A stretch of DNA of 51,040 bases, taken from IMG/VR virus record IMGVR_UViG_3300037424_001249, positions 1-51,040 of that record; one strand, given 5' to 3'. This document shows positions 1,664 through 19,102 of this stretch, one piece after another (the stretch's first letter is position 1; every line of letters starts with the position of its first letter). Origin of the DNA: a virus. Its lineage: Duplodnaviria; Caudoviricetes. The notes under the pieces are model-generated. The model searched no databases. It had not been told where the DNA came from and saw only the letters and a program-made list of their open reading frames with translations. The position numbers were made by a program, and so were the translations under genes.

Positions 1664-2013
1664 GGGGTGAAGTCCTTGATTTTGCAGGGGTTCGGATCAC
1701 GTTTCGTGTGTTCGTACAGCCCGTCAACCCACGCGTTGATCTCGTCCGAGTGGTCAGGTGGGCTCAAATCAACCCCGTTGTTCTGAGTCGGCCCCCAGTA
1801 GGTGGCTGTGGGGGCGAAGCCGGATCCTGCGAGGTAGATTCCGACCGCTGGCTTCCCGTTCGACTTGACCCACGTCAGACCATCGGTCTTGACCAAGGCT
1901 CTGCGGGCGATTGCGGCAGTCCCGTTCGTACCGGTCGTCAGGCCAAAATAATCATCTCCATCAGGTGTCATGGGTCGGATAGTACTTCCTCGGACGATCG
2001 TGCGGTAATTCAT
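1660..2013 (-). CDS. hypothetical protein
   Basis: 117-aa ORF overlapping both neighbours by 4 nt, consistent with translational coupling. Confidence 0.65.
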   Translation of the reverse strand: MNYRTIVRGSTIRPMTPDGDDYFGLTTGTNGTAAIARRALVKTDGLTWVKSNGKPAVGIYLAGSGFAPTATYWGPTQNNGVDLSPPDHSDEINAWVDGLYEHTKRDPNPCKIKDFTP

Positions 2014-2204
2014 TCGCAGTGCTCCTTGATGTTGCGCGTGGCGACGACTCGTGCGCCATAGGCCTCCTTGGCGAGGTTCTCAAGACACGCGACCCTGGTC
2101 TCAAGGGCTTCGATGTGCTGGATCAAGATGCTTGTAATTACAACCTCGCGGTACGCTGGCCATGCGGCCGGGGGCAACCGCACAAGAATTTCATCAATGA
2201 TCAT
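2010..2204 (-). CDS. hypothetical coiled-coil protein
   Basis: ATG at 2204 overlaps the upstream TGA (ATGA). Confidence 0.6.
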   Translation of the reverse strand: MIIDEILVRLPPAAWPAYREVVITSILIQHIEALETRVACLENLAKEAYGARVVATRNIKEHCE

Positions 2205-2335
2205 GACTTGACCTGAGCCAAGCGATACCGGTTGACAATTTCCTGAGTCCAAGGCTGCCCCGGCTTGAGGCCGTACTTGGCTCGCTCCGCGGCCATCTCA
2301 ACTTCAAACGCCAGACATGCTTCGTAAAACGTCAT
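2201..2335 (-). CDS. small hypothetical protein (44 aa, MTFYEACLAFEVE...)
   Basis: Translated by hand; AAGGAG RBS upstream; ATGA overlap with the next gene. Confidence 0.6.
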   Translation of the reverse strand: MTFYEACLAFEVEMAAERAKYGLKPGQPWTQEIVNRYRLAQVKS

Positions 2336-2395
2336 TGTATTACTCCTTGCTGTTAGACTAGCTGAGGTGGGGAGTCGAACCCCACGGCACCACTC

Positions 2396-2629
2396 TCAGT
2401 TTGCGTCACACGATCCAGCAACGAGAGTGAGACCTCGCCGACCTGGGAGCGGGGCCTCAGTGTGGCAGAGCCCGGCGGCGCACGCACGACCCACGATCTG
2501 GTAGCCGTAGCAGAGAGAGCCGTGGGGGCCAATTTCGCTTGCGGCGTCGATCATAGCCATCGGCCCACGACGCTCCAGGAGGTCTGCCAGCTTCTGCATC
2601 TTCGGTCCGACTCGGTTGGGCTTGTTCAT
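2396..2629 (-). CDS. small hypothetical protein, possibly winged-helix; first gene of sigma54 cassette 1
   Basis: ATG 14 nt downstream of the -12 GC. Confidence 0.6.
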   Translation of the reverse strand: MNKPNRVGPKMQKLADLLERRGPMAMIDAASEIGPHGSLCYGYQIVGRACAAGLCHTEAPLPGRRGLTLVAGSCDAN

Positions 2630-2643
2630 GTGTTTGGAGTATT

Positions 2644-2735
2644 GCAGTTTGGGGGCCAAGGTTTCGCGTCAGTGATTATGACACGTTGGACTTCTACGGA
2701 GTGGGTCATTCGTTGACGGTGGGTGCCGATTGCGC
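2644..2735 (-). promoter_or_regulatory. sigma54-type promoter plus upstream motif, cassette 1
   Basis: TGGCCCCCAAACTGCA (GG-N10-GC) on minus; GGGTCAT..GGTGGGTGCCGAT at 2703 on plus. Confidence 0.7.
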
Positions 2736-2741
2736 TACACT
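2713..2741 (+). promoter_or_regulatory. sigma70-type promoter for the gpZ-endolysin pair
   Basis: TTGACG-N17-TACACT, with ATG 7 nt downstream. Confidence 0.6.
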
Positions 2742-2748
2742 TCGGGCC

Positions 2749-3297
2749 ATGGAATTGAAATTGGAGTGGAGTGCGCCAGCTTTCTGGCGTGCCCGGGGAC
2801 TCGAGAGGGCCTTGCTCAAGTCCCTGAGAATGGGCGGGAGAGACGCCATTCGAGCGATGAAATCCCAAGGAAACAAGACGGTTAGGGCGCGCAAGAAGCT
2901 CAAGGTTTCGCGTGTGAACAAAGGTATGGAAACCACTTCGCCGGTGGGCGCTAGCTCCATCAACGACCTTGTGTGGACCATGTCGGTGGACAACGCTCCG
3001 ATTCGCCTTGTGGACTACCCTCACCGTCAAGGTAAGCTTGGGACGACGGTGCAGGTCAACGTGGGTGCGCGTAAGTTGATCAAGTCGGCCTTCGAAGCCA
3101 AAATGAGGTCTGGTCATGTAGGCGTGTTCATGCGCGAAGGTACAGCCAGACTGAAGATCAACGAGCTTTTCACCTCCCGACTGACCGACGTGTTCAAGGA
3201 TCACGGTATGATTCCGGCGCTGCAAGAACGCGCACAAACTGCGTTTCAGAAGACGTTCGACCGAGTATTCCCTCTTGAGTGTGCAAAGGTGCGATAA
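2749..3297 (+). CDS. lambda gpZ-like minor tail / tail completion protein
   Basis: Basic protein with IKSAFEAKMRSGHVGVFMREG..RLKINELF, typical of the GPZ family. Confidence 0.65.
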   Translation: MELKLEWSAPAFWRARGLERALLKSLRMGGRDAIRAMKSQGNKTVRARKKLKVSRVNKGMETTSPVGASSINDLVWTMSVDNAPIRLVDYPHRQGKLGTTVQVNVGARKLIKSAFEAKMRSGHVGVFMREGTARLKINELFTSRLTDVFKDHGMIPALQERAQTAFQKTFDRVFPLECAKVR

Positions 3298-3731
3298 TGA
3301 AAGATATCCTCTCGAAGGTGTCACCGAAGTTTGCCGCGCAGATCCGCACGCTCCAGAGCGCGTGCAAGGCCCTCGGCCACGAGTACCGCCTCACCAGCGG
3401 TCTGCGTACGTACGCAGAGCAAGATGCACTTTATGCGCTCGGGCGCACCAAACCGGGTGGACGCGTGACCAACGCCAAGGGCGGGCAATCGTACCACAAC
3501 TTTGGTCTTGCGGTAGATTTCGTGGCGATCGTGGGTGGCAAGGTGAGTTGGGTCAAGTCTGACTACCAGACACTGGGAAAGGAAGCGCAACGCATGGGGC
3601 TTGTGTGGGGTGGTGTGTGGAAATTCGTTGACATCCCACATGTACAGCGCGGGGAGTATTCCCTAGCTGTGATGGACCGTGCGTTCAAGTCGGGCGGATT
3701 GCCCGCGGTGTGGTCCGCCGTGGGTGCTTGA
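3297..3731 (+). CDS. endolysin, M15 family L-Ala-D-Glu peptidase
   Basis: SGLRTYAEQDALYALGRT, SYHNFGLAVD, WGG.W.FVDIPHVQ. Confidence 0.9.
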   Translation: MKDILSKVSPKFAAQIRTLQSACKALGHEYRLTSGLRTYAEQDALYALGRTKPGGRVTNAKGGQSYHNFGLAVDFVAIVGGKVSWVKSDYQTLGKEAQRMGLVWGGVWKFVDIPHVQRGEYSLAVMDRAFKSGGLPAVWSAVGA

Positions 3732-3870
3732 TCTCGGTGAAGACGTCATTGGCCATGTCGTAGATTTCGGTCAAGTGGATCAGGTGAGCACCTGACCTGC
3801 CTTCTCGGTGCGCTGCAACGATTGCGGCCAACGACTTGAGCAATCGCGTGTGGGCTTGGGCGCGTGTCAT
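3685..3870 (-). CDS. hypothetical protein
   Basis: ORF coupled to the upstream membrane-protein gene; convergent overlap with the endolysin. Confidence 0.4.
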   Translation of the reverse strand: MTRAQAHTRLLKSLAAIVAAHREGRSGAHLIHLTEIYDMANDVFTEIKHPRRTTPRAIRPT

Positions 3871-4016
3871 GGCTTATTCTCTCCGGCCCCGAGGGCAAGC
3901 CACAGCCCGAGCAGGCACGCGGCGCACACGAGCGCTTGAAAGGTGGTCCCGAAAATCCCAAAAATCGTGAGCCACAAGACGCTTGCAGCTAGGCAAATTG
4001 CGACGAGTGATTTCAT
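3867..4016 (-). CDS. small two-TM membrane protein; first gene of cassette 2
   Basis: Two hydrophobic stretches; ATG 13 nt after the -12 GC. Confidence 0.6.
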   Translation of the reverse strand: MKSLVAICLAASVLWLTIFGIFGTTFQALVCAACLLGLWLALGAGENKP

Positions 4017-4029
4017 GATCGTTGTCCTT

Positions 4030-4125
4030 GCATCTTGAGGGCCAGCGCGCAACGCCCATCGAATTCAAGCGCTTGCAACTCGATGGGATGGGTCATTCAC
4101 CGTTGGTGGGTGCCGATTATCGGTC
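4030..4125 (-). promoter_or_regulatory. sigma54-type promoter plus upstream motif, cassette 2
   Basis: TGGCCCTCAAGATGCA; motif GGGTCATTCACCGTTGGTGGGTGCCGATTATCGG at 4090. Confidence 0.75.
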
Positions 4126-4939
4126 ACTCTGACGGGGTTGGTTCCTCAAGTTCCGCCACGAGTCCCACCTTCTCCCCCTCGAGAATCCAGATCGCGAAAT
4201 CCTTGACGTCCTGCGTCAGGCTGGCATCATACTTAGCGAGGAACTTCTTGATCGCCTTCTTGCCCGGGATCTTCGACGCAGGTTTTTCGCCCTTGCTCGC
4301 CTTGACCGCGGCCACAGTTTCCGCAACCGTTGCGCCGTCTTCCAAGGTCTCGAGCTGAGAATCCTGCTCCTCGCGTGCCAGGCCAGCGAGCTTGACCGCT
4401 GCGCTCAGACTCAACTTTCCGGCGCGCACTGCGGAGATCACCTTGGGGGAGCATTCCGAGAGCTTGAGCAGTGACTTGACGTAGCTCACCTCACGCGCGA
4501 AGGTGACCGCGCACTGCTCTTCGTCACGGCCAAGCGACATCAACCTCTGGAGTTTTTCCAGCTTGACGACGGGGTTGTCGTCCGTGCGACACTCGTTCTC
4601 AGCGATCAGGATCGCGACCTGATCTTTGTCACTCGAGCGGTCCACCTTGCAGGGCACCGAGACCAGCTCCTGCCCGTCTTTGGCGAGGATCTCGTTTGCC
4701 GCGAGGGCCCAACGGACACGCTGTCGCCCCGCGACGACTTCGAACGCGTCACCATTGCGCCGGATTACCACGGGCTCGATGATTCCGTGGGCGCAAACGT
4801 TGCGCACCATGGCGGGGTTGAGCGGCATTTCAACTCGCTCATCGTACAGTGGGTGACTCTTGTCAGTGATCAAGACAAGGTCCTCAGGGCGAAAGAAATG
4901 CAGATCCGAGCGGCCAACAGATTGCTTGATAGCTCCCAT
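4124..4939 (-). CDS. parB: ParB/Srx-family protein
   Basis: GIIEPVVIRR..FEVVAGRQR, AENECR, central HTH-like region. Confidence 0.8.
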   Translation of the reverse strand: MGAIKQSVGRSDLHFFRPEDLVLITDKSHPLYDERVEMPLNPAMVRNVCAHGIIEPVVIRRNGDAFEVVAGRQRVRWALAANEILAKDGQELVSVPCKVDRSSDKDQVAILIAENECRTDDNPVVKLEKLQRLMSLGRDEEQCAVTFAREVSYVKSLLKLSECSPKVISAVRAGKLSLSAAVKLAGLAREEQDSQLETLEDGATVAETVAAVKASKGEKPASKIPGKKAIKKFLAKYDASLTQDVKDFAIWILEGEKVGLVAELEEPTPSE

Positions 4940-5223
4940 TACTTACTCTCCTTGACAGTTGTCTGGTACTCTCGCCACGCCAGATCCATAATTTCCCTGG
5001 CCTTGCGTACTGCGTCACGTTCTACGATTTGAGCCTCGATGCAAATTCTGCGGTACTTGTGCCACGCTGCGAGGTCTTCTGGTGACTGATGTCTCACAGG
5101 GTCACCCGGACGATGTGGACCGCGAGCATGGTGCGCATAGCTTGCAATTCGCGCTCCAAGACCAGGGTCCACCCGAGGATATACGACTGACGCACGGACT
5201 CGGGCACGTGCTCCCCAAGACAC
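4939..5223 (-). CDS. hypothetical protein (start uncertain)
   Basis: Stop abuts the ParB start and carries its RBS. Confidence 0.4.
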   Translation of the reverse strand: MSWGARARVRASVVYPRVDPGLGARIASYAHHARGPHRPGDPVRHQSPEDLAAWHKYRRICIEAQIVERDAVRKAREIMDLAWREYQTTVKESK

Positions 5224-5441
5224 TCAAGCCACGTGGGGTCAAGCCCGTCAGACAACGCGCGCGTCATGGTGCTGGTCTGTGTGCCTTTGCGGCACGGGCC
5301 GATTGAGTGCCTTACATCTTGCAACAGGTCGATGACCCAGGTCATCGCATCATCAAGCCCCAAGGCCCCAGCGGCGTCAGGTGTCCAAGTTGGGGAAACG
5401 AGCGCTTGGTTAGTGCCTTCGAAGGCGTCGATCTGGTTCAT
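5094..5441 (-). CDS. hypothetical protein
   Basis: Part of an overlapping minus-strand gene chain. Confidence 0.55.
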   Translation of the reverse strand: MNQIDAFEGTNQALVSPTWTPDAAGALGLDDAMTWVIDLLQDVRHSIGPCRKGTQTSTMTRALSDGLDPTWLECLGEHVPESVRQSYILGWTLVLERELQAMRTMLAVHIVRVTL

Positions 5442-5635
5442 GACTGCGCCTCAGCATACACCGGGCCGTCCCACGCGCTGAGGTAGATTGCGCCCCATTC
5501 GCGGGCAAACGCAGGACTCACGTCATAGTGATCGCACCACTTGTTCCAGGCGACGCAGAAATCCGCGAAGGTAAGGGTTCCGCGCTTCGTCGCATACTTG
5601 TGATACAGCTTGATCAGTTCGGGTTGCATGGTCAC
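5438..5635 (-). CDS. hypothetical protein
   Basis: 4-nt overlaps with both neighbours. Confidence 0.55.
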   Translation of the reverse strand: MTMQPELIKLYHKYATKRGTLTFADFCVAWNKWCDHYDVSPAFAREWGAIYLSAWDGPVYAEAQS

Positions 5636-5868
5636 TTTCCCGCGCGAAACGCGCGTTCGGCCTCGATCTTCGCTTCCAGAGCCCGGCGCTCGACTTCCGC
5701 GGTGTGCTCCTCGATTACTGCGCCACGAAAGGCCTTCTCGGTGTCGCGAATGATTTGCGCCAAGGCCTTGGCACCCTTGAAGTCACTCTGCTCAACTGCA
5801 GTCACGACGCTTTGACGGAGGACATCAAGTGTGATTTTCAGTTCCTGGGCTCTGCTGAGGTCGTTCAT
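5632..5868 (-). CDS. helical hypothetical protein; first gene of cassette 3
   Basis: ATG 14 nt after the -12 GC. Confidence 0.6.
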   Translation of the reverse strand: MNDLSRAQELKITLDVLRQSVVTAVEQSDFKGAKALAQIIRDTEKAFRGAVIEEHTAEVERRALEAKIEAERAFRAGK

Positions 5869-5882
5869 GTCTCCCACGTATT

Positions 5883-5962
5883 GCTTTCTTCGTGCCACGT
5901 TTGTGGGTTGTATTTATGGTGGGTTACAGTCTACGATCGGAGGTCATTCGACGTCGGTGGGT
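5883..5962 (-). promoter_or_regulatory. sigma54-type promoter plus truncated upstream motif, cassette 3
   Basis: TGGCACGAAGAAAGCA; GGTCATTCGACGTCGGTGGGT at 5942. Confidence 0.7.
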
Positions 5963-6798
5963 CAATATGCTTCGGCCTCTTCTCGAGTTTTGAAAAAGTG
6001 AATCCCGGGAGCACACTCCACGCGGATGTCGTCAGAGTAGTTTGGTTCCACCACCCCGGCACCGACTGTGTAAGTGAATCTCGGATCGTGCGTGCTAACG
6101 TAAGGCCCTGCGCCTCCGTCAGACGCACTTAACACTACAGCTCTGTCGCACCTGCACTTCGAGCCCACGAGCGACGCTGTGCGGCGTCCAGTGACAAGCA
6201 GCTCCAACACAGTGCCGTTGACCACCTTTTTCCAGCCGATGAGACCTGCGCTCTGGAGCTGAAAGTCGGGAAGAATGGCACCCCTGAGGTTCGCGCACTC
6301 GAGGTTCGCACCCCTGAGGTTCGCGCACTCGAGGTTCGCGCCCTCGAGGTTCGCACCCCTGAGGTTCGCGCCCTCGAGGTTCGCGCACTCGAGGTTCGCA
6401 CCCCTGAGGTTCGCGCCCTCGAGGTTCGCGCACTCGAGGTTCGCACCCTCGAGGTTCGCGCCCCTGATGTTCGCGCCCTCGAGGTCAGCACCCCTGAGGT
6501 CAGTATACCTGAGGTTCGCGCCCTCGAGGTTCGCATACCTGAGGTTCGCACCCCCGAGGTTCGCACCCCCGAGGTTCGCACCCTCGAGGTTCGCGCCCCT
6601 GAGGTCAGCACCCCTGAGGTCAGCACACCTGAGGTCAGCACCCTCGAGGTTCGCGCCCTCGAGGTTCGCGCACTCGAGGTTCGCACCCCTGAGGTTCGCG
6701 CCCTCGAGGTCAGTACACCTGAGGTCAGCACACCTGAGGTTCGCACCCTCGAGGTTCGCGTCTGGCCTAATCGTAACTTCGTATCCGTTGATGTTCAT
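5962..6798 (-). CDS. pentapeptide repeat protein with C-terminal DUF5758-like domain; first gene of cassette 4
   Basis: About 30 A(N/D)L(R/E)(G/C) repeats (15-bp DNA repeat, ~6280-6760); C-terminal KCRCDRAVVL..ECAPGIHFFKTREEAEAY. Confidence 0.9.
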   Translation of the reverse strand: MNINGYEVTIRPDANLEGANLRCADLRCTDLEGANLRGANLECANLEGANLEGADLRCADLRGADLRGANLEGANLGGANLGGANLRYANLEGANLRYTDLRGADLEGANIRGANLEGANLECANLEGANLRGANLECANLEGANLRGANLEGANLECANLRGANLECANLRGAILPDFQLQSAGLIGWKKVVNGTVLELLVTGRRTASLVGSKCRCDRAVVLSASDGGAGPYVSTHDPRFTYTVGAGVVEPNYSDDIRVECAPGIHFFKTREEAEAY

Positions 6799-6812
6799 GT
6801 GTCGTTGTCCTT

Positions 6813-6908
6813 GCATCTTGAGGGCCACGTTGCCGTGGCCGCGATTTCAAGCACTTCGAGGCCCGTCTGGTGGGTCATTCGACGTCGGTGGGTGCCGATT
6901 ATCGGTCA
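6813..6908 (-). promoter_or_regulatory. sigma54-type promoter plus upstream motif, cassette 4
   Basis: TGGCCCTCAAGATGCA (same as cassette 2); motif at 6872. Confidence 0.75.
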
Positions 6909-7173
6909 GGTCGATTCCGGCGAGGCACGTCAGGGCCTGGCGCGCGTCGGCCAGTTGCTTCTGTAGGTCCTCGATTCGAGTCTGACGCACAGGCCCGGTC
7001 TGACGTGCGATTCTAAGGAGTCTTGCCGCGCCGATCGGCACAACCGACTCAGAGCACACGGCACCGGCGAGCGCAACCTTGTCTGCGTCCACCTTGTGGT
7101 AGTCAGCAATTTGGCTCTCCAGGTACGAGATCAGAATTACCACAGCATCGCAAATATCGCAGACACTAGTCAT
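6847..7173 (-). CDS. hypothetical protein
   Basis: ORF in the minus-strand chain; its 3' end runs through the cassette 4 motif. Confidence 0.5.
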   Translation of the reverse strand: MTSVCDICDAVVILISYLESQIADYHKVDADKVALAGAVCSESVVPIGAARLLRIARQTGPVRQTRIEDLQKQLADARQALTCLAGIDLTDNRHPPTSNDPPDGPRSA

Positions 7174-7174
7174 C

Positions 7175-7396
7175 TCAGACCCACGCGATCGAAAACGGAA
7201 CCCGGGCAGTCTGAGTCACAGGCAGGTCGTACAGTTTGATCCACGGGAGCGCCAACTGACCCGCGGTAGCCGCGTGCGCGTGATCTCGCACAACGTCACC
7301 CGTTACAGGTATCCTTACGGGAAACCTGAACACAGACTTCGAGTCGCCAGCCTTGGGACTCACGGTTACAACGTATTCACAAGTCATTGTTTTCAC
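7175..7396 (-). CDS. hypothetical protein
   Basis: Overlap-coupled ORF. Confidence 0.5.
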   Translation of the reverse strand: MKTMTCEYVVTVSPKAGDSKSVFRFPVRIPVTGDVVRDHAHAATAGQLALPWIKLYDLPVTQTARVPFSIAWV

Positions 7397-7581
7397 TGAT
7401 CACCTCGCATGAAATAATACACAATACCGTCGGGTGAGGTCGCGACGCCCATTGATCGAAACTTGGACAGCCGCCTAATGGTATCCGTGAGGACGGCGTG
7501 AGGATCGGTGCGCCGGGGAGTTACCTGCAACAGGTCGGTCAGGTCTGTGAGCACAGCTTGGAGCTTGTCATTCCAAGTCAC
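7393..7581 (-). CDS. hypothetical protein
   Basis: Overlap-coupled ORF after orn; GAGG RBS. Confidence 0.55.
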   Translation of the reverse strand: MTWNDKLQAVLTDLTDLLQVTPRRTDPHAVLTDTIRRLSKFRSMGVATSPDGIVYYFMRGDQ

Positions 7582-8168
7582 AAGACTACCTCACTCAACA
7601 CCTTGCGCCAATACTGTAATTCCGCGATCGAGCCCTCGAGGTCGGCCAAGGCCCTGTGGTAGGTGTGTCCGCAAATCGTCTCGTAGGTCCTACGGGCCCC
7701 GGGCACTGTCGCGAAACACAGTTCCTTGAGTGTTGACACGTCAAGATTGCGGTAGTGCAAGAAATCCAACACGCGCGGCATTTGCGCCGCGAGCATTGCG
7801 CGATCGAAGTGCACTGAACTACCTGCCAACACAGGGCGTTGGGCGGGGTCTGCGCTAGGGGTGCCGAGATGGCTCTCTAGCCAGTGACACACTCGGATCG
7901 TAGTCAACGCATTGGGCAGTTCCTCGCATGACCACAACTCCTGGAGCAGTCCGCTAGCTTTGTGCATGTCTCGCACATAGGGAGACATGAGGTTATGCAC
8001 ACGGTCAAGATCCTGTCGCACCACCCAACTGGAGCGCGCGACCTCAGTCATATTGTAGTCTGTGATGATGATTCCCACCTCAAGAATCAAATCCTTGGCG
8101 GGGTCGAGGCCGGTAGTCTCGACGTCAATCCAGACAAATCGCTTGAGATTCGCGGGTTCGTTGGGCAT
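7578..8168 (-). CDS. orn: oligoribonuclease (DEDDh)
   Basis: WIDVETTGLD, MHKASGL, LAGSSVHFDR, LHYRNLDVSTLKEL, HRALAD..SIAELQYWR match Orn signature motifs. Confidence 0.9.
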   Translation of the reverse strand: MPNEPANLKRFVWIDVETTGLDPAKDLILEVGIIITDYNMTEVARSSWVVRQDLDRVHNLMSPYVRDMHKASGLLQELWSCEELPNALTTIRVCHWLESHLGTPSADPAQRPVLAGSSVHFDRAMLAAQMPRVLDFLHYRNLDVSTLKELCFATVPGARRTYETICGHTYHRALADLEGSIAELQYWRKVLSEVVL

Positions 8169-8174
8169 GCACAA

Positions 8175-8236
8175 TACTTAATCTCGTTGGACGGGCCTGT
8201 CAAGGGCTTGCGTAACTGCCCGTCCGAGCGTATCTA
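8175..8236. promoter_or_regulatory. back-to-back sigma70-type promoters for orn (-) and primase (+)
   Basis: Minus: TTGACA-N17-TAAGTA-N6-ATG; plus: TTGCGT-N17-TATCTA-N6-GTG. Confidence 0.6.
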
Positions 8237-8242
8237 TTCCAA

Positions 8243-10714
8243 GTGCCTCAAGACTCTCTCGCTAGCTCCCCCGGGTTCGGTACGCGCGGACCGACGGGCA
8301 TAACCCGGGGTGAGCTAGCCCTTTTCCCCGTCACCTGGATTGTCGACGGGGCCTGTTCTTGCGGCAAATCCGACTGCGCGAGCCCTGGGAAACACCCCCT
8401 GGTTTCCGGTGGGTGCAAAGCCGCTACTACTGACGCCAAACAGATCGCAGAGTGGCAGCAAAGATGGCCTGACTGTAATTGGGGCGTGGCCACGGGTTCC
8501 AGCTTGGTTGTAATTGACCTGGATCGCAAACGCGGGGTCGACGGAGTTTCTGCGTTTCGGGCGCTCGCTCGAGAGCACGGGGGGGAGTTGCCGGCCACCT
8601 ACTCCGTGTTGACCGGGGGAGGGGGAGCTCACCTCTACCTGAGGACCTCAGTGCCGATCGCCTGCTCAGTCGGCAAGGTGGCCCCAGGAATCGACGTGCG
8701 AGGGGAGGGGGGCTACGTCATGGCCCCAGGGTCGGATCACGTGTCGGGGCGGTCCTATGAGGTCGCGCGAGATTTGCCGATCGCGGACATGCCCGCGTGG
8801 CTCGAGACTTTGTTGACGCCAGCAGTGACACCACAAGTCCAGTCGCCCACAGAACGAACCAACTTTGGCCCCGCGTCCCCTGAGGTACTGTCGCTTGCTC
8901 GCGCGGCACTGATCGAGTCAGGGCCCGCGGTCCAAGGTAGTGGGGGAGACGATCACACGTTCTGGGTTGGGGCGATGATGAGGCACAATTTCGCCTTGAC
9001 AGAGGCCGAAGCCCTGCCGCTGTTTCGGGAGTGGAACCTCACCTGCAAACCACCGTGGTCTGAGGCCGGACTACTCGCCAAGCTCCGAGGGGGCGCGAAA
9101 TACGCCAAAGGCAAGTTTGGTGATCGCCGTCAAGTCGATGTGTTGACTCAGGTCATGGCGCTGCTTGACGCGTATGCCCAGGGTGGTCAAGACAAAACGC
9201 GGCTACCAGAGTTAACAGCTAAAATCAATCAAATAATCGCCACAGGAATTCCTCAAGCCACGTGGGCTGTGATCAACCACGAAATCAAAATTGCTACAAC
9301 GCTCACGGCTAAGGCACTGGGGATCGGGAAACCGAACGCATTGAAGGCCGCGGGTGAGGCCCGAGTTGCAGCAAACCCGGGGGGAGTCATTGACCCCGAG
9401 TACTACGACAAGCAAGCCCTAGCCGTTCTGGACCCAACGCGCGATGAAGCCGGAATCCCCCTGTTGGCGAGGTGGGGCGAAGATTTCTGGAAATTCAACG
9501 GTGCATATTATGCGCCCGTTTCGTCCGAACACATTGACGTAGCGTCACGCAAGTGGCTCGGAGGAAAACTTGATACGAAGGGCGACGAAGTCAAGGCATG
9601 CAGCCATCACGTTGACGAGATTCGGAAGGCCTTGATCGGCCAAATCACTGTGACCGGAGGGGTTGCCCCAGCTTGGCGATCGGACGAACCATTCCCAGCG
9701 AACGAGGCGATCTGCTTCGCCAACGGTGTCCTGAGGCTCACCCCGCGCACCTGGTTGCCCGGCCCGAGACGGGATTTATTCTCTCTGAGCTCCACGTCGT
9801 TCGGATTCGACCCTGACGCACCAACACCCGCGAGATGGTTGGCGTTTCTCAACCAGATTTGGCCAAACGATCCTGAGGCGATTTCGACCCTGCAAGAGAT
9901 CTTCGGACTCATGCTCACAACTGATACGAGCTTTCAGAAGATCTTCATGGTGATCGGCCCTCGGAGGTCAGGCAAAGGGACGATCGCCAGGGTCCTGACC
10001 GAGTTGGTTGGGCAAACCGGAGTCTGTCACCCGACACTCGGGGGCTTGGGCCAGCACTTCGGACTTCAAGGCCTGATCGGCAAGCAACTGGCGGTAATTT
10101 CTGACGCACGCCTGTCAGCCAAGTCTGACGTGAGTCAAGCGACGGAAGCCCTACTGCGAATTTCTGGTGAGGACGGAATTTCAATCCCGCGCAAAAATCG
10201 TGAGGACGTCGCACTCAAGCTCAATGTGCGCTTTCTCCTACTCACGAACGAACTTCCATACTTGTACGACTCGGCGGGAGCGCTCGCGGCGCGATTCGTG
10301 ATCCTGCAAATGGCTCACTCGTTCTTGGGCCAAGAGACTCTTGATCTCACGCGACGCCTACTGACAGAACTTCCGGGCATTGCCCTGTGGGCACTCGAGG
10401 GGCTTGAGCGACTCTACTCGAGGGGCAGGTTGGTTCAACCCGCGAGCGGGAAACAGGCCATGGTAGAGCTTGAAGAAATCACGAGTCCAATCAAGGCTTT
10501 CGTCGAAGACAAGTGCGTCATCGGCCCGGGCATCTCATGTGCTGCCACTGAAATCTATCAGGCGTGGTGTGAGTGGTGCGCGCAATCGGGGCGCAAAGAA
10601 ACTGGCACGGTCCAGATCCTGGGGCGCAACCTCAAGGCCGCGTTCCCCTCCGTCACCTCGGTCAGAGTGGGCGAGGGTGGCCAGCGCCGCTTCGGAGGGG
10701 TCAGGGTGCGCTAA
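8243..10714 (+). CDS. bifunctional primase-polymerase fused to D5/P4-type SF3 helicase
   Basis: CSCGKSDC..PGKHP, VIDLD, TGGGGAHLY, IDVRGEGGYVMAPGS; GPRRSGKGT Walker A; C-terminal winged helix. Confidence 0.92.
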   Translation: MPQDSLASSPGFGTRGPTGITRGELALFPVTWIVDGACSCGKSDCASPGKHPLVSGGCKAATTDAKQIAEWQQRWPDCNWGVATGSSLVVIDLDRKRGVDGVSAFRALAREHGGELPATYSVLTGGGGAHLYLRTSVPIACSVGKVAPGIDVRGEGGYVMAPGSDHVSGRSYEVARDLPIADMPAWLETLLTPAVTPQVQSPTERTNFGPASPEVLSLARAALIESGPAVQGSGGDDHTFWVGAMMRHNFALTEAEALPLFREWNLTCKPPWSEAGLLAKLRGGAKYAKGKFGDRRQVDVLTQVMALLDAYAQGGQDKTRLPELTAKINQIIATGIPQATWAVINHEIKIATTLTAKALGIGKPNALKAAGEARVAANPGGVIDPEYYDKQALAVLDPTRDEAGIPLLARWGEDFWKFNGAYYAPVSSEHIDVASRKWLGGKLDTKGDEVKACSHHVDEIRKALIGQITVTGGVAPAWRSDEPFPANEAICFANGVLRLTPRTWLPGPRRDLFSLSSTSFGFDPDAPTPARWLAFLNQIWPNDPEAISTLQEIFGLMLTTDTSFQKIFMVIGPRRSGKGTIARVLTELVGQTGVCHPTLGGLGQHFGLQGLIGKQLAVISDARLSAKSDVSQATEALLRISGEDGISIPRKNREDVALKLNVRFLLLTNELPYLYDSAGALAARFVILQMAHSFLGQETLDLTRRLLTELPGIALWALEGLERLYSRGRLVQPASGKQAMVELEEITSPIKAFVEDKCVIGPGISCAATEIYQAWCEWCAQSGRKETGTVQILGRNLKAAFPSVTSVRVGEGGQRRFGGVRVR

Positions 10715-10945
10715 CTACCGCATCTTGCCAGCGGTCCAACGGGCGGGTTCCTCAACCTCAAACCGGTAACCGTCAGACACCTTGGTCTGCGTTCCGTCAG
10801 TGAAAGACACCGTCACCTTGCGCGTGTGCCTGAAGTTCTCCGGCCCCTCGACTATGCTTGCGACAGTGCGGCAAAGGCCGTTGTTTCGGTTGAGCACCAC
10901 GTCGCCAGACTGAAGATGACCGCTGTAGATTCGAACCGTGTTCAT
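10715..10945 (-). CDS. small beta-barrel-like (SH3/KOW-like) hypothetical protein; first gene of cassette 5
   Basis: LQSGDVV...TVASI...VTVSFTDG; ATG 14 nt after the -12 GC. Confidence 0.6.
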   Translation of the reverse strand: MNTVRIYSGHLQSGDVVLNRNNGLCRTVASIVEGPENFRHTRKVTVSFTDGTQTKVSDGYRFEVEEPARWTAGKMR

Positions 10946-10959
10946 GTCTCTAACGTATT

Positions 10960-11053
10960 GCTATTCACGTGCCACGTCTAGAAACACGAAAACCCGTGCC
11001 TTTACGAGCGCACGGGATGGGTCATTCTCGGTCGGTGGGTGCCGATTATCGGA
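10960..11053 (-). promoter_or_regulatory. sigma54-type promoter plus upstream motif, cassette 5
   Basis: TGGCACGTGAATAGCA; motif at 11019. Confidence 0.78.
10985..11016 (-). terminator. putative intrinsic terminator inside the cassette 5 spacer
   Basis: Minus strand CCCGTGC-N10-GCACGGG followed by TTTTCGTGTTT. Confidence 0.5.
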
Positions 11054-11201
11054 CAGTCAACGCGACCCCGATCGCTTCCTTAGACTCCTTGAGTCCAAGA
11101 CCAGTGCGACTCCGGTAGGCCTTGATTGCGGAGATCTTCAGTCGGGGTGAAATCCGTTGTTCAACAATCGGGTGTACAGCGTGGGGTGAATTCCGCCGCA
11201 T
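11046..11201 (-). CDS. ribosomal protein bL12 C-terminal-domain-like peptide (possibly a fragment)
   Basis: Translated by hand: KISAIKAYRSRTGLGLKESKEAI. Confidence 0.55.
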   Translation of the reverse strand: MRRNSPHAVHPIVEQRISPRLKISAIKAYRSRTGLGLKESKEAIGVALTVR

Positions 11202-11329
11202 TCTGTCTTAGTGTAAATCAGGCGAAACAGTGCGTCCAAGACAGCCTTGCGCAACTCTACTCGTCCAAGGACTGCGCACAGGGTGTCAGTGGGCGCGCCC
11301 CTGATCTCTGCCTCGAGTCGAGGGTTCAC
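11138..11329 (-). CDS. hypothetical protein
   Basis: GTGA-coupled to the upstream ORF. Confidence 0.5.
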   Translation of the reverse strand: MNPRLEAEIRGAPTDTLCAVLGRVELRKAVLDALFRLIYTKTECGGIHPTLYTRLLNNGFHPD

Positions 11330-11502
11330 TGTGTCACCTTGAACACGGTTCCAGGGTACTCAAGACGAACCATTTGAATCATGCGACCCTTGACGGGGTA
11401 GGAAACCGTAACCGAGCCATCGGGGTGCACCTCCTTGACAGTGCCAGTGACCGAACCCGGGGAAGCGCGAACCTTGTCACCCACCTTGCAGTTGTTCTTC
11501 AT
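11326..11502 (-). CDS. KOW/SH3-like small protein (paralog A); first gene of cassette 6
   Basis: KVGDKVRAS..GTVKEVH..VSYPVKGR..RLEYPGTVFKV. Confidence 0.65.
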   Translation of the reverse strand: MKNNCKVGDKVRASPGSVTGTVKEVHPDGSVTVSYPVKGRMIQMVRLEYPGTVFKVTQ

Positions 11503-11515
11503 GTCTCTACCTATA

Positions 11516-11606
11516 GCATTCGACGTGCCACGTTTACTTGCCAGTGATTTCAAGACTTACGTCGTCAGACCATGGGTCACTCATCGTTGGTGGGTGCCGA
11601 TTATAG
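11516..11606 (-). promoter_or_regulatory. sigma54-type promoter plus upstream motif, cassette 6
   Basis: TGGCACGTCGAATGCT; motif at 11574. Confidence 0.78.
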
Positions 11607-11625
11607 GTCGGTGCTGCGGCATGAG

Positions 11626-11943
11626 TTATGCTAGCTCAAACTTCGCTTGCTTGTCGGCTTTAGTGAGCTTGCGCACACCGAAGACACGCCCCAGCATGCC
11701 CACGCTGTACGTGGCGACCTCCTTGTCGTGCATGCTCCATGTGCTCAGACGTTCCACTTCTGGCACTAGCATCCAGGTGGGTGCGTTGTGATTCCAGCTC
11801 ACCTTGGCTGTGCTGTCGCAGACCTTCAAGATCTCCACAGGATACTCGCAGACGGTGTCCAGGGTCGTATTGCCAAACTTGCGCGTGTGTCGATCGTACA
11901 GCGTCATGCTAACCCTGACCTTTTCAAACTTGATTGCCATCAT
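11626..11943 (-). CDS. hypothetical protein
   Basis: AAGGAG RBS; 105-aa ORF. Confidence 0.65.
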   Translation of the reverse strand: MMAIKFEKVRVSMTLYDRHTRKFGNTTLDTVCEYPVEILKVCDSTAKVSWNHNAPTWMLVPEVERLSTWSMHDKEVATYSVGMLGRVFGVRKLTKADKQAKFELA

Positions 11944-11982
11944 CTCTCCTTATATCGGGTTAAAACCGTTGTTCAGCAGTCG

Positions 11983-12192
11983 TCACAGCACTTTGAAAAC
12001 AGTACCTGGGAATTCCAGGCGCACGATCGGGTACGTGCGACCCTTGACAGGGTAGGACACCTCAAGGGCCTCCCACGCACTATTTTCGCCGTTGCGCCGG
12101 TGAACCTCCTTGACGGTGCCAATGACTGAATTGAGTGAGGCGCGAACCTTGTCACCAACTTTGATGTTTTTCATGTTTTTATCCTCAGTCAA
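11983..12192 (-). CDS. KOW/SH3-like small protein (paralog B; start may be 12174)
   Basis: Clear paralog of 11326-11502. Confidence 0.65.
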   Translation of the reverse strand: MTEDKNMKNIKVGDKVRASLNSVIGTVKEVHRRNGENSAWEALEVSYPVKGRTYPIVRLEFPGTVFKVL

Positions 12193-12427
12193 AAAAGTCG
12201 CTACCGTGTTTGGTGCAAATGTGCTCCCGGATGCCCTTGAGCAAGTCGTTGATATCGCTCACCTTGACCGTCTCAGCGGCCTGGCAACGGACAATCGAGA
12301 GCACAGCAGCCGACACCAGCGCGGCGCGGATAGGGCCGGTCAGGTAGCCCGTGACGGCCCCGTTTTTGAAGTCGACGGTGTAGATGTCCTTAGCGTGTGC
12401 TGCGACTTGTTTAGTTGACCAGCTCAT
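12185..12427 (-). CDS. hypothetical protein; first gene of cassette 7
   Basis: ATG 13 nt after the -12 GC. Confidence 0.6.
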   Translation of the reverse strand: MSWSTKQVAAHAKDIYTVDFKNGAVTGYLTGPIRAALVSAAVLSIVRCQAAETVKVSDINDLLKGIREHICTKHGSDFFD

Positions 12428-12440
12428 GTCTCTACCTATA

Positions 12441-12530
12441 GCACTCGACGTGCCACGTTTTCTGGCCAGTGATTCCAAGACTTACGTCTGTGGACCGTGG
12501 GTCATTTACCGTCAGTGGGTGCCGATTGTA
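12441..12530 (-). promoter_or_regulatory. sigma54-type promoter plus upstream motif, cassette 7
   Basis: TGGCACGTCGAGTGCT; motif at 12499; near-duplicate of cassette 6. Confidence 0.78.
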
Positions 12531-12700
12531 GTACAGTTTCGATTCCGCCTGGCTCGTACCACCCATGTGATCCCGTCAGGAAAGCACACCGACCACTGGT
12601 TGCGCGGGGCCTGGAAGCGCTCACGTTCGCCAGAGTCTCGAAACCAGTAGGTCACAGGTACGAGCCGCGGGAACGTGTCCTCAGGCGTTTCCACTGTCAC
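12512..12700 (-). CDS. hypothetical protein
   Basis: GTGA-coupled ORF. Confidence 0.45.
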   Translation of the reverse strand: MTVETPEDTFPRLVPVTYWFRDSGERERFQAPRNQWSVCFPDGITWVVRARRNRNCTTIGTH

Positions 12701-12963
12701 GTATTCTCGTGGCGCTCAAGCAAGTTGAGCCGAGCGGCGAGGTCCGCAGCCTCAGCCAGAGCAACACGGTAGGCGCAACGCTCAGTAGAGCCCACGTTGC
12801 AGTTTTCCCACAGCTTGACGATCGCGTTGACTCCTCGTGCGTGTGTGGAGATCATCTTGACGGACTCAACGCCAGGGTCAACCTCGAGGACTGCGACCCT
12901 ACGGTAGGTCCCCCAGCACGTCGCGGAGGGGGTGGTGGCTGCTGTCTGTACGATGTAGGGCAT
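12697..12963 (-). CDS. hypothetical protein
   Basis: AAAGGA RBS; 88-aa ORF. Confidence 0.6.
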   Translation of the reverse strand: MPYIVQTAATTPSATCWGTYRRVAVLEVDPGVESVKMISTHARGVNAIVKLWENCNVGSTERCAYRVALAEAADLAARLNLLERHENT

Positions 12964-13042
12964 TTCAGGATCCTTTCAGGACTCAGGCACAAGCTGCTTC
13001 AAAATTCGACTCGCGCTTCGTTGCTCACGTCTCTCACGTACT

Positions 13043-13132
13043 GCTATTCACGTGCCAGCTTGCCGGACGAATCGTTTTCAATAGTTGCGAACTTCGCCCA
13101 TGAGTCATTTTGCGTGGGTGGGTGCCGAATAT
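13043..13132 (-). promoter_or_regulatory. sigma54-type promoter plus upstream motif, cassette 8
   Basis: TGGCACGTGAATAGCA; GAGTCATTTTGCGTGGGTGGGTGCCGAAT at 13102. Confidence 0.75.
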
Positions 13133-13252
13133 GCGACAGATCCCAACGAAGCCACGGGTAACACACTGGGCAACGCCATGCTCCCGCGACAGTCTCCCAC
13201 AGCCCAGTGGGCTCGTGGGCAGGCCAACCACCGTATCCGCCGACACATGTGG

Positions 13253-13489
13253 TCACAGGATCTCCACAGTGCCAACGGCCTCTAGCACGTGCACCGCGCG
13301 GAGTGTCCACCGAACAGTACACGGCGTGTGTGGTAGCACTTTGCGCACATGTTGGCACACGACTTGATCACACGCACTTGTTGACTCCGGAAACGCGCTT
13401 CCCAGGGCTATGCTCAGGGTGCTGCGGCCCATGAGGCCTGGCCGCTTGATTGTGCACACAATTTCCCACTTTGGGCCGTTGAGACTCAT
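13253..13489 (-). CDS. hypothetical protein
   Basis: TAAGGAG RBS directly after the upstream stop. Confidence 0.55.
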   Translation of the reverse strand: MSLNGPKWEIVCTIKRPGLMGRSTLSIALGSAFPESTSACDQVVCQHVRKVLPHTPCTVRWTLRAVHVLEAVGTVEIL

Positions 13490-13500
13490 AGCTTAACTCC

Positions 13501-14286
13501 TTACCAATCTGGTCTTGGTTTCTTGATTATGATGCCAACATACGTCGGGTTCGCCGTCTTACGACACTTGACGTCCTTCTTGAGATCCCTCAAACCAAAG
13601 CGCGCGAACAACCTGAATTCGGCCCTGTCCTTGGGTGGTGGCTTGAGTTTGGTGTCTAGGTAGTCGGCATACAGATCGTCAAGCGTAACGCTTGCGTCTT
13701 TGAATCGGAAATCACAGTAGTGCGCCAGGTACAATCTAACACTCTCACGCGGACACCAGGCATGCTTAATCTTCGCCCCAATCAATTCCATGTTCGGACC
13801 TGGGGGGTCAGGCTCCCGAGGGCACAAACCATACCAATACCCTTGACACTTGTACATGTGCGATGTGCGCTTGTATCGGAACGAATACGACGCAGTTTCT
13901 CGAGAAAGCCGCTCCAAGATTCGGCCGAACTGGCTACGGTCCACAGGGCCGCTATCCCAACTGTGTTTCCAGAAATGGTCCCAAAGCTGGTTTAGGGTCG
14001 AGTAGGCCTCAGGACCGAACGAGCAAGCGCGCTCCAGGAAGGTCCTAACCCCGCCAGTTGCGTCGTACCCGCTTCGTGGAGGGAGCGGGTCAGGGTACTT
14101 GAGCGGAAATCCCTCTCGAGTCGTGAGTCCTGCCCTCCAACGAGATAGGTCCCACTCAGGATCGAACGGATCCATGCACAACGCCACAGGACCATACTTG
14201 AGGGGCTGTGGCCCGTACTGTGGCCCGATCGGCCCCTGGGGGGTATCTGGGCACGGTTCGAGTGGTTTGGGCTCGTCCTGGGGCAT
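13501..14286 (-). CDS. protein with two primase-C-terminal-like (D5/P4 alpha-type) winged-helix domains
   Basis: VRTFLERACSFG..LWDHF..QFGRIL..WYGL and VRLYLAHYCDF..LYADY..YVGI resemble the primase C-terminus IKAFVEDKCVIG..IYQAW..ILGRNL..FGGV. Confidence 0.6.
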   Translation of the reverse strand: MPQDEPKPLEPCPDTPQGPIGPQYGPQPLKYGPVALCMDPFDPEWDLSRWRAGLTTREGFPLKYPDPLPPRSGYDATGGVRTFLERACSFGPEAYSTLNQLWDHFWKHSWDSGPVDRSQFGRILERLSRETASYSFRYKRTSHMYKCQGYWYGLCPREPDPPGPNMELIGAKIKHAWCPRESVRLYLAHYCDFRFKDASVTLDDLYADYLDTKLKPPPKDRAEFRLFARFGLRDLKKDVKCRKTANPTYVGIIIKKPRPDW

Positions 14287-14365
14287 TTCTTAAGACTAAC
14301 AGCCGTGGGGTTGGTTGTCAAATCCAGGATTTTTAGATCGTAAGTGCGCGTAAACACACTAGCTA

Positions 14366-14715
14366 GCACTTGACCGAAGCTATCGAGCAGTCTCCTAAGG
14401 CATCGAAATCACTATAAGTGTTCAACCTAATTACACGTGGTTAGCGCTTGACCTACTTTCACCGCTCGATGCGATCGACTCTCGGGCGCTTGGCTACTAC
14501 GACAGAGATCTATTCTCTTGACACTGTAACACACATAATAGTTTCTACAGGTCGCGTCCCTCTGAGAATCGATCTCTGTCGTAGTAGCCAAGTGGCCGAG
14601 AGTGAGATCGATCGAGCAGGAAATATCGGTCAAGCGCTAAGTGCCTGATATTGTGTTGAACACTTATAGTGAATTCAATAGGTTAGAAGACTGCTCGATA
14701 GAGTTGGTCAAGTGC
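14366..14715. repeat. long imperfect inverted repeat (two ~152-bp arms, 46-bp loop)
   Basis: Perfectly complementary blocks CTTGGCTACTACGACAGAGATC (22), TCACTATAAGTGTTCAAC (18), TTAGCGCTTGACC (13), TATCGAGCAGTCT (13), GCACTTGACC (10). Confidence 0.92.
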
Positions 14716-14846
14716 GAGTTGATCTCAAATGATAGGAGATCAAGAGAACGATTGACCTAGGACGATAGCAAGTCAAGTCTTGATATGGAACGATAGTAGA
14801 TCAAGTGTGCTCTTGACTTCGTATCCTTGTAGATCAAGAGAAGAGC

Positions 14847-14859
14847 TAAGTTGTTGATT
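14847..14859. promoter_or_regulatory. IHF consensus site
   Basis: TAAGTTGTTGATT matches YAANNNNTTGATW. Confidence 0.5.
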
Positions 14860-14949
14860 TTTGGGAACTTTTTGGATCGTGACCATATGTGACCATACAT
14901 GCAACATATTGAAATTATTGGTTTGAGGGGGTACACCCCTCCATGGGCA

Positions 14950-15000
14950 TAGGTTCTTCCGGGGTGATCCCGGTCAAGCGGGTAACACGGACGCGCGTTC
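14950..15000 (+). other. candidate lambda-like cos (packaging) site
   Basis: AGGTTCTTCCGGGGTGATCC resembles lambda cosQ-cosN flank GGGTCCTTTCCGGTGATCC; lies upstream of the terminase genes. Confidence 0.4.
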
Positions 15001-15214
15001 TGAGCACATGTATGATATCTTGAACTGTATACAAGTGACGTACAGTGTCCTACATTGTAGCTGATCGACTTGTGTGCGCGCTGTGTTTCTTGATGTACAC
15101 AATCAGGCACTCCTAAGGTTACAACTGGTGCACACCCTCAGCACGATCGCACCGTCTTGACACCTTATGAAGCACCATAGTAGATACCAAATAGGCACCA
15201 ACCAGGAGAGCAAC

Positions 15215-15478
15215 GTGGCACTAACGGACGAAGAAGCACTGTTGTTTGGCCAACCCAGTGCCAAGGAAGATAACGCGTCTGCACCGATAAGTGACGAAGC
15301 CACTTCACCGGCAGTCACCGCCGAGTCACCTAGTAGGCGCTACCCTGTTCCTTTGTCTGACACGCTCCGGCAAAGTTTGCGCGCACTGGCCAAGGCGAAC
15401 CACCAGCCTATGTGGTTCACTATCGTGAAGCTACTTGAAACAGGCGTTGTAGCCAGACACGGAAAGGGGCCGATGTGA
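15215..15478 (+). CDS. ribbon-helix-helix (Arc-like) DNA-binding protein
   Basis: AGGAG RBS and GTG start; RRYPVPLSDTLRQSLRALAKANHQPMWFTIVKLLE. Confidence 0.6.
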   Translation: MALTDEEALLFGQPSAKEDNASAPISDEATSPAVTAESPSRRYPVPLSDTLRQSLRALAKANHQPMWFTIVKLLETGVVARHGKGPM

Positions 15479-19083: not shown

Positions 19084-19102
19084 CACGAGGTCGTGGTAAT
19101 AG

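Follow-up and report, generated by a model that had tools for sequence, protein, structure and literature searches.

How are the leftward genes of a phage switched on when each of eight of them, or of their operons, lies behind a copy of the same regulatory unit? The question is raised by IMG/VR record IMGVR_UViG_3300037424_001249 (Duplodnaviria; Caudoviricetes), an uncultured sediment phage. The window analyzed here is that whole record, 51,040 bp in length, and is called G000 where it is compared with other genomes. Each unit combines an upstream site, a spacer, and a block resembling the core of a sigma-54 (RpoN) promoter. The early genes of phages are usually said to be transcribed from sigma-70 promoters that need no activator. 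A first, sequence-only reading of the window proposed that small accessory genes are instead plugged into a host enhancer-binding protein through eight sigma-54 promoters. With some reserve, we favor the view that the eight units are promoters for host sigma-54 and that a single host enhancer-binding protein activates them, a view built on motif, spacing, and comparative data.

Architecture of the eight units

Read on the coding (minus) strand, the units share the order (G/T/C)ATAATCGGCACCCAC-N9-(A/G)TGACCCA, 42–44 nt, TGGC(A/C)C-N7-GC(A/T), 12–13 nt, and ATG, which is replaced by GTG in unit 1. The upstream site spans 33 nt, ATAATCGGCACCCAC-N9-ATGACCCA, and is an imperfect direct repeat. The components are as follows, with core scores given against the extended consensus TGGCACG-N4-TTGCW discussed below and small products given as open reading frames (ORFs).

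13101–13133, minus strand: upstream site of cassette 1, CATATTCGGCACCCACCCACGCAAAATGACTCA
13042–13057, minus strand: core 1, TGGCACGTGAATAGCA, 11/12; followed by GTG at 13026–13028, which opens a 9-codon ORF only
12498–12530, minus strand: upstream site of cassette 2
12440–12455, minus strand: core 2, TGGCACGTCGAGTGCT, 11/12; ATG at 12425–12427 of an 80-aa ORFan
11573–11605, minus strand: upstream site of cassette 3
11515–11530, minus strand: core 3, TGGCACGTCGAATGCT, 11/12; ATG at 11500–11502 of a 58-aa ORFan
11018–11050, minus strand: upstream site of cassette 4; its TAA is the stop codon of ORF 11046–11201
10975–11017, minus strand: spacer of cassette 4, a terminator-like hairpin and then a U-run, -14.2 kcal/mol
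10959–10974, minus strand: core 4, TGGCACGTGAATAGCA, 11/12; ATG at 10943–10945 of a 76-aa ORFan
6871–6903, minus strand: upstream site of cassette 5, the best fit to the cross-phage consensus (22/22)
6812–6827, minus strand: core 5, TGGCCCTCAAGATGCA, 9/12, weak alone; ATG at 6796–6798 of a 278-aa pentapeptide-repeat/DUF5758 protein; AAGGA on the -12 region
5940–5972, minus strand: upstream site of cassette 6, degenerate, TGACCCAC...TGACCTC
5882–5897, minus strand: core 6, TGGCACGAAGAAAGCA, 10/12; ATG at 5866–5868 of a 78-aa ORFan, in an operon that reaches the ParB-like gene 4124–4939
4089–4121, minus strand: upstream site of cassette 7, beginning directly after the TGA stop of the ParB-like gene
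4029–4044, minus strand: core 7, TGGCCCTCAAGATGCA, 9/12; ATG at 4014–4016 of a 49-aa hydrophobic ORF
2702–2734, minus strand: upstream site of cassette 8, overlapping a divergent plus-strand sigma-70-like leaderless promoter, TTGACG-N17-TACACT-N7-ATG at 2713
2643–2658, minus strand: core 8, TGGCCCCCAAACTGCA, 9/12; ATG at 2627–2629 of a 77-aa ORFan, in an operon that runs to the helicase gene 23–1663

The core pattern TGGCMC-N7-GC occurs 14 times in the window versus 5.87 expected; eight of these matches, all on the minus strand, are the units, with the GC at 2644, 4030, 5883, 6813, 10960, 11516, 12441, and 13043, as the sequence-only reading had located them, and the GG-N10-GC spacing is exact in all eight. 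The upstream motif was likewise found at each of the eight starts given in that reading, seven copies being exact and the copy at 5940–5972 degenerate. The written form of that motif needed correction: typed with a single N, it has no match even when three mismatches are allowed, the gap between GGGTCAT and GGTGGG being 8 nt. In its corrected form, GTCAYT-N6-10-GTGGGTGCCGA, the motif has seven exact upstream copies (0.00 expected), and the composite of upstream site, 36–48 nt, and core also matches seven times (0.00 expected). The distance from the upstream site to TGG is 42–44 nt in all eight copies, in agreement with the 45–47 bp measured earlier from the motif start, and several copies had been said to end in a palindrome, which is present in perfect form, CCGATTATCGG, in three of the eight (4030, 6813, and 10960).

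The spacers of the window are unrelated in sequence and fold strongly in only two of the eight copies (-14.2 and -17.0 kcal/mol); one spacer has no structure at all. Around the cores, more is conserved than the sigma-54 consensus requires: ACG precedes TGG, and AGAGAC precedes ATG. An AAGGA sequence overlaps the -12 region in two units. Downstream of cassette 1, the next real gene (12697–12963) has its own ribosome site, AAAGGAT. None of the 10 small ORFs tested downstream of the units belongs to a PHROG family. The description of the driven genes as accessory thus fits most of the ORFs, which are ORFans, and falls short for the units that head the pentapeptide-repeat gene, the ParB-like operon, and the helicase operon.

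Comparison of the cores with the sigma-54 consensus

The extended sigma-54 consensus used for scoring is TGGCACG-N4-TTGCW. This consensus is supported by the list of bound Salmonella sigma-54 promoters in PMC3844500, and the cores of the window resemble the experimentally bound promoters listed there. Scored on the core alone, four of the eight reach 11/12 (0.42 sites expected at 11 or above), and a fifth scores 10/12. The remaining three, all TGGCCC cores, stand at 9/12, a background level (35 observed versus 26.45 expected in the window). Scoring against the RpoN consensus, proposed as a check by the sequence-only reading, therefore sustains five cores at 10–11/12 and leaves three at background; these three are carried by their context and not by the core itself.

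A pooled set of 31 sites from four phages, chosen only by TGG-N10-GCW and an ATG 12–13 nt later, leaves the remaining positions free to vary. At these positions, C (24/31), A (20/31), and C or T (27/31) follow TGG, and T precedes GC in 24/31. By base composition, the free positions read as the sigma-54 pattern.

Recurrence of the unit in other phages

The unit is not confined to the window. When viral contigs were scanned for the upstream site, they yielded G001, a 43.7-kb record with terminal repeats, and the composite pattern yielded G002 (49.7 kb) and G003 (36.1 kb). Matches to TGGC-N9-GCW-N11-14-ATG exceed those in shuffled sequences in G000 (8 versus 0.87), G001 (8 versus 0.5), and G003 (10 versus 0.53). 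G001 and G003 each carry ∼8–10 sigma-54-like cores with an ATG 12–13 nt behind, many of them with a variant upstream site; these variants reveal an imperfect direct repeat, TGAC(C/T)CA-N11-TGAC(C/T)CA. In the only unit of G002, 43 nt separate the site from a perfect TGGCACGCACGTTGCT, and a 31-nt leader containing AGGAG precedes the ATG. A metagenome scan added five convincing copies, on the short contigs L083, L085, L089, L091, and L092, and three chance-like ones. The GG-N10-GC spacing, whose conservation in related phages had been named as a test, is kept in the sites of G001–G003.

G000 and G001 are not close relatives. Their common proteins are an endolysin, a phrog_284 exonuclease (63% identity), a MazG-like pyrophosphatase, and a few structural or unknown proteins, and none is regulator-like; the other phages with the unit share few or no detectable proteins with G000. 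The site blocks TCGGCACCCAC and ATGACCCA are nevertheless identical across G000, G001, and G003. Because G000 and G001 share few proteins and none that resembles a regulator, a shared host factor is the simplest explanation of the shared site. The ACG and AGAGAC conservation of the G000 cores is absent from G001 and G003.

The geometry of the unit was compared in 24 instances from G000–G003 and the metagenome contigs with a site score of at least 15. The site-to-TGG spacer is 40–44 nt in 19 of these, and the outliers (31, 33, 34, 54, and 55 nt) differ by about one helical turn in either direction, at least two of their sites being doubtful. The start codon lies 12 nt after GCW in 14 instances and 13 nt after it in seven. 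Near-duplicate copies with similar spacers are seen at 11530/12455 and, in G001, at 17016/17317/19458. In copies from outside G000, a terminator-like hairpin with a U-run is frequent in the spacer. Since it is spacer length and helical face that are kept, and not RNA structure, the comparison argues for an activator site acting at the DNA level; the conserved length appears to fit a DNA-bound protein reaching the polymerase and to fit an RNA element poorly.

Three further observations concern these other phages. A second conserved element of ∼60 nt, GGCCAGGACACCACCCGGACCGAGATCGTCGTTCCTGAG..AAATGCGGCGGTC, is common to G001 (6321 and 7849, plus strand) and G003 (8023, plus strand; 27829 and 25849, minus strand); no copy was found in G000. 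In three of the five copies, a sigma-54-like core comes next. The element could represent a second class of enhancer or be unrelated. A protein of 177–191 aa with a C-terminal HTH_23 domain is encoded in G001 (24140–24673, minus strand), G003 (12365–12907, plus strand), and L091 (about 506–1080, plus strand), always directly upstream of the site copy that best matches G000; in G001 and G003 its gene comes after that of the shared phrog_284 exonuclease. It has weak matches to terminase small subunits and to sigma-70 region 4. In G001, which lacks an ORF of RNA polymerase size, a 13-nt match to CACTATAGGGAGA, which we take to be the core of the T7 class III promoter, lies at about 23570 (minus strand) and is probably a coincidence.

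A model for activation

If the units are sigma-54 promoters, the sigma-54 holoenzyme would sit on TGGCMC-N7-GCW as a closed complex, and a host AAA+ enhancer-binding protein bound to (G/T)(C/G)ACCCAC-N10-TGACCCA on the correct helix face would open that complex. The activator site would lie at about -69 to -101 relative to the predicted start, a position within the range of ∼70–150 bp given for upstream activator sites in PMC3844500; binding itself is only predicted. Transcription would begin ∼12 nt after the GC and 2–3 nt before the start codon, with predicted starts near 13031, 12429, 11504, 10948, 6801, 5871, 4018, and 2632 on the minus strand. As the start codon follows the core by 12–13 nt, the predicted messages would be almost leaderless. 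The unit is also expected to work without an adjacent ATG, judging from cassette 1, with its 9-codon ORF, and from G002, with its 31-nt leader and AGGAG. In many of the copies outside G000, the terminator hairpin between site and core would insulate the unit from read-through. Most leftward early transcription units would then fire only with one host activator active, and a few other genes would be served by sigma-70-like leaderless promoters, namely the gene for a 261-aa protein (13501–14286), the exonuclease operon, and two rightward genes.

Consistent with an activator supplied by the host, PF00158 (Sigma54_activat) is absent from the six frames of G000–G003, in a search whose positive controls matched in 14 of 14 control genomes, and G000 contains no GAFTGA-like motif; both results bear out the earlier statement that no GAFTGA-containing ORF is present. 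A search of G000 and G001 with PF04552, the DNA-binding domain of sigma-54, gave only two subthreshold helix-turn-helix matches in G000 and none in G001, and no RpoN is encoded in the window. No ORF of phage RNA polymerase size is present in G000, G001, or G003, and the searches that were run revealed neither a sigma-70-family region 2 nor an RNA polymerase gene.

The picture given by the sequence-only reading is qualified by a second set of promoters. A scan of the minus strand between 2400 and 15400 found no sigma-70-like sites at its threshold. The pattern TTGACN-N16-18-TAnnn(T/A)-N5-8-ATG/GTG has five sites in G000 versus 0.47 expected, including 14321 (minus strand), before the first leftward gene, which encodes the 261-aa protein; 8203 (minus strand), before the exonuclease operon; and 2713 and 41291 (plus strand), before rightward genes. 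These promoters, with a TTGACA-type -35, a 17-nt spacer, and TAnnnT/A, end 6–7 nt before ATG, and one is also present in G001 at 20343 (plus strand). The genes behind them are probably leaderless. Two classes of promoter thus seem to operate in the phage, each placed immediately before start codons, and a near-leaderless sigma-54 promoter is for this reason less odd here. Downstream of a sigma-70-like leaderless promoter, 41882–42103 (plus strand) encodes a 73-aa ArsR-type winged-helix protein (HTH_5, E 8.9e-9), which is a candidate phage regulator.

Taken together, the sigma-54 interpretation holds in part: the core type is real, the site stands at a fixed and helically phased distance, the layout recurs in other phages, and no canonical activator is encoded.

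Evidence against host sigma-54 activation and the search for a host

Several observations weigh against activation by host sigma-54 and one host activator. In addition to the three cores at background level described above, two of the three TGGCCC units have AAGGA 9–11 nt before ATG; read-through RNA could use this sequence for ribosome binding, and the predicted sigma-54 transcript would lack it. The site is asymmetric, occurs in one orientation, and lies nearer to the core than the 100–150 bp at which the review PMC7057263 places the activator site. In the literature consulted, no sigma-54 promoter was found described with its start codon at +3/+4. In biological terms, early phage transcription that awaits an activated host ATPase is demanding.

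The host searches point in the same direction. The strict site, scanned through one genome each for ∼185,000 species, has 63 loci; not one of the 62 bacterial loci listed is followed by a sigma-54 core at the spacing of the cassettes, and all 62 look like coding-sequence matches. The expectation that candidate host genomes would carry the motif before sigma-54 promoters was thus not borne out, and no host regulon with the upstream site was found in the species-representative genomes. In Acidobacteriota, the cassette pattern was found in 0 of 401 sampled genomes. Myxococcota, suggested earlier as a possible host group, gave matches to a looser pattern in 10 of 401 sampled genomes (control, 1), and the first half-site and a nearby ATG are both missing from all 10; by a rough estimate, 10 matches are expected from real sigma-54 promoters alone, and the suggestion of a Myxococcota host is not upheld. 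The capsid protein, compared with 301 genomes of the class that includes Polaromonas, gave three weak matches at 30–38% identity. The distant protein relatives of the phage allowed no host inference. The sequencing runs that contain the phage sequence are DNA runs from sediment metagenomes, with no RNA run listed.

Alternative explanations

That the sigma-54 core is true and the upstream site is bound by a phage-encoded protein strikes us as unlikely. Such a protein might act as a repressor or co-activator, might tether a host activator lacking a DNA-binding domain, or might be an unorthodox activator. The genome scans, which found no host copy of the site, would agree with it, and DNA-binding candidates are at hand: in G000, the ArsR-type protein (41882–42103), the SF2 helicase-like ATPase with tandem HTH_23 units, and the 261-aa tandem-domain protein; in G001, G003, and L091, the 177–191-aa HTH_23 protein directly upstream of the best-matching site. 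However, none of these candidates is common to G000 and G001/G003, and the identical site blocks across phages call for one conserved DNA-binding domain. Weak matches to terminase small-subunit models suggest that the HTH_23 proteins of G001 and G003 may be packaging proteins, and the G000 helicase, being encoded downstream of cassette 8, cannot start the circuit. No candidate has the ATPase domain of a sigma-54 activator. Somewhat more improbable still is a reading in which the TGGCAC...GCA block is a sigma-54 look-alike recognized by another factor, such as a diverged sigma or a phage-modified host polymerase, as a phage-specific middle promoter. The unusual nearness of the start codon to the block, the G000 conservation of ACG before TGG and AGAGAC before ATG in excess of the sigma-54 consensus, and the three weak cores would suit this explanation, as would the nine promoters of phage YuA with a phage-specific motif that, according to PMC10914365, are thought to need phage factors. 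Nonetheless, the sigma-54 consensus reappears at the free positions in four phages, the ACG/AGAGAC extensions are not common to G001 or G003, a -35/-10 reading gives no conserved -35, and what was searched revealed no gene for a sigma-70-family region 2 or an RNA polymerase.

We attach very little probability to a third possibility, that the units are mainly recombination or insulator modules, resembling the promoter(early) stem-loop (PeSL) cassettes of T4-type phages, or an RNA-level element, and not activator-dependent promoters. The units do flank small ORFans in a variable early region, near-duplicate copies with similar spacers exist, and many copies outside G000 include a terminator hairpin; PeSLs, as described in PMC2839356, pair a promoter with a stem-loop and mediate shuffling. 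Shuffling is, however, compatible with a promoter role, PeSLs being promoters as well, and core and ATG spacing are kept across phages with unrelated spacers. Good folding in only two of the eight G000 spacers, the absence of any Rfam family match in the window, and an upstream small ORF that is inconsistent between copies are further points against this possibility. That ORF, starting from an ATG inside ATGACCCA, is in frame in five of the eight copies by hand count and meets an early stop in at least one of these; it was rejected as a candidate in its own right.

Three further candidates were also set aside. A small-RNA promoter at the site, formed by a -10-like ATAAT and a hairpin, has no conserved -35, and most G000 copies lack the hairpin. 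A promoter for a T7-like phage polymerase would rest on CTATAGG, which occurs in two copies only, and no polymerase-sized ORF is present. An activator role for the 261-aa protein is disfavored by its lack of a relative in G001; the protein more likely serves the iteron region adjacent to its gene.

Returning to host sigma-54 promoters with a host activator, a broader version can be put forward, which we regard as quite doubtful: the unrelated sediment phages would share one host lineage with leaderless early messages and single-enhancer sigma-54 promoters, and the activator would be an infection-triggered host protein of the alarm type or, alternatively, a non-AAA+ phage factor that opens complexes in a new way. 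By analogy, and as speculation, an alarm-type host activator might resemble PspF or RtcR.

Genome context

The window (58.8% G+C; CheckV completeness, 100) is a complete myovirus genome of 51 kb that encodes no RNA polymerase. This assignment follows from its gene content, including all of the largest ORFs (823, 685, 667, and 661 aa), every one of which is assigned. Rightward genes encode a lambda-type large terminase and portal, a protease-capsid fusion, a tail sheath, and a Mu-like baseplate. Leftward genes encode SF2 helicase-like, ParB-like, and pentapeptide-repeat proteins, an RNase T-type exonuclease, a family A DNA polymerase, a PD-(D/E)XK nuclease, and an AAA_24 protein; a PrimPol-D5 primase gene lies on the plus strand within the leftward arm. 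The ends of the record overlap (1–127 equals 50677–50803, and 40–208 matches 50871–51040 at 98%), and the genome is therefore circular or permuted, IMG/VR listing the record as linear. The leftward arm runs from base 23 on into the 50-kb end. At that end, the true C terminus of the product of the helicase gene (23–1663, minus strand) consists of two tandem, nearly identical HTH_23 units.

No tRNA genes were found in G000–G003. A near-identity search of GenBank phages gave no match for positions 1–25000 of the window or 1–20000 of G002, and a primase query found no relative among viral contigs. Protein relatives are distant only: the terminase is 44.6% identical to that of an Acetobacter phage, the capsid protein 42.7% identical to those of Bordetella phages, and the polymerase 28% identical to its relative.

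Other features of the window are as follows. At 24708–26765 (plus strand), a Peptidase_S78 prohead protease is fused with a Phage_capsid_4 major capsid protein in a single 685-aa ORF, a fusion also found in Bordetella and Stenotrophomonas phage relatives at 38–43% identity. The stretch 14290–15200 is gene-free, seemingly of lower G+C content, and contains CTTGATCT/CTTGAC iterons and long inverted repeats. The 261-aa ORFan that adjoins it (13501–14286, minus strand) has an internal tandem duplication whose halves align with an E value of 1e-5, and its nearest atlas clusters partly carry Pox_D5; the iteron stretch and this protein are probably a replication origin with its initiator. The 278-aa pentapeptide-repeat protein behind cassette 5 (5962–6798, minus strand) has a C-terminal DUF5758 domain, and its DNA includes ∼30 tandem 15-bp repeats at about 6290–6760.

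Implications

With most early units gated by one sigma-54 activator, infection would depend on the signaling state of the host. If this is true, the unit offers a handle for host prediction, since the host must have rpoN and the cognate activator, and loss of that activator would be a possible route to host resistance. As a promoter module, the unit would also be compact, insulated, and dependent on its activator, and it would bring its own leaderless start. The presence of this design in unrelated phages suggests an under-described transcription strategy of uncultured phages.

Comparison with known systems

The units are similar to bacterial sigma-54 promoters such as glnAp2/NtrC, pspA/PspF, and zraP/ZraR in having a -24 GG, a -12 (T)GC, and fixed spacing between them. 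They are also alike in the presence, on the same DNA, of an upstream activator site, which is described at ∼70–150 bp (PMC3844500, PMC7057263). In contrast to these promoters, the units are phage-borne and occur in eight copies with one common site, the site is an asymmetric, one-orientation direct repeat that ends 40–44 bp from the -24 element, and the start codon is predicted to fall at about +3/+4 with no ribosome-binding leader.

PeSL cassettes are likewise short, repeated regulatory cassettes; they unite a promoter and a terminator stem-loop and are described as lying beside small non-essential ORFs in plastic early regions (PMC2839356). Their promoters are sigma-70-like and need no activator, whereas the units described here have a sigma-54-type core and an enhancer, and a clear hairpin in only two of the eight G000 copies. 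Leaderless genes, as in Deinococcus-Thermus and actinobacteria, resemble the driven genes in that the start codon lies a few nucleotides from the predicted start; PMC12754779 defines leaderless as having at most 5 nt between transcription start site and start codon. The leaderless cases described in PMC12340547 use a sigma-70-family -10 element, whereas the promoter here is of the sigma-54 type. In the literature consulted, no description was found of repeated enhancer and sigma-54 cassettes in phage or of sigma-54 promoters abutting start codons.

The nearest phage system is the Pseudomonas phage YuA (Yuavirus), whose development is reported to be strictly dependent on host sigma-54; the same source calls phage use of sigma-54 "rare, not unprecedented" (PMC5053324). 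As described there and in PMC10914365, YuA is similar to the phage of the window in having no RNA polymerase or activator of its own and in relying on host sigma-54 for part of its program. One sigma-54-like promoter of YuA has been mapped by start-site sequencing, beside sigma-70-like and phage-specific ones (PMC10914365). The main differences are that the window carries an eight-unit array with a common enhancer, predicted near-leaderless starts, and a layout common to unrelated phages. Phage use of sigma-54 is thus already known from YuA, and the variant that the window appears to add is a repeated enhancer-promoter array with a near-leaderless layout.

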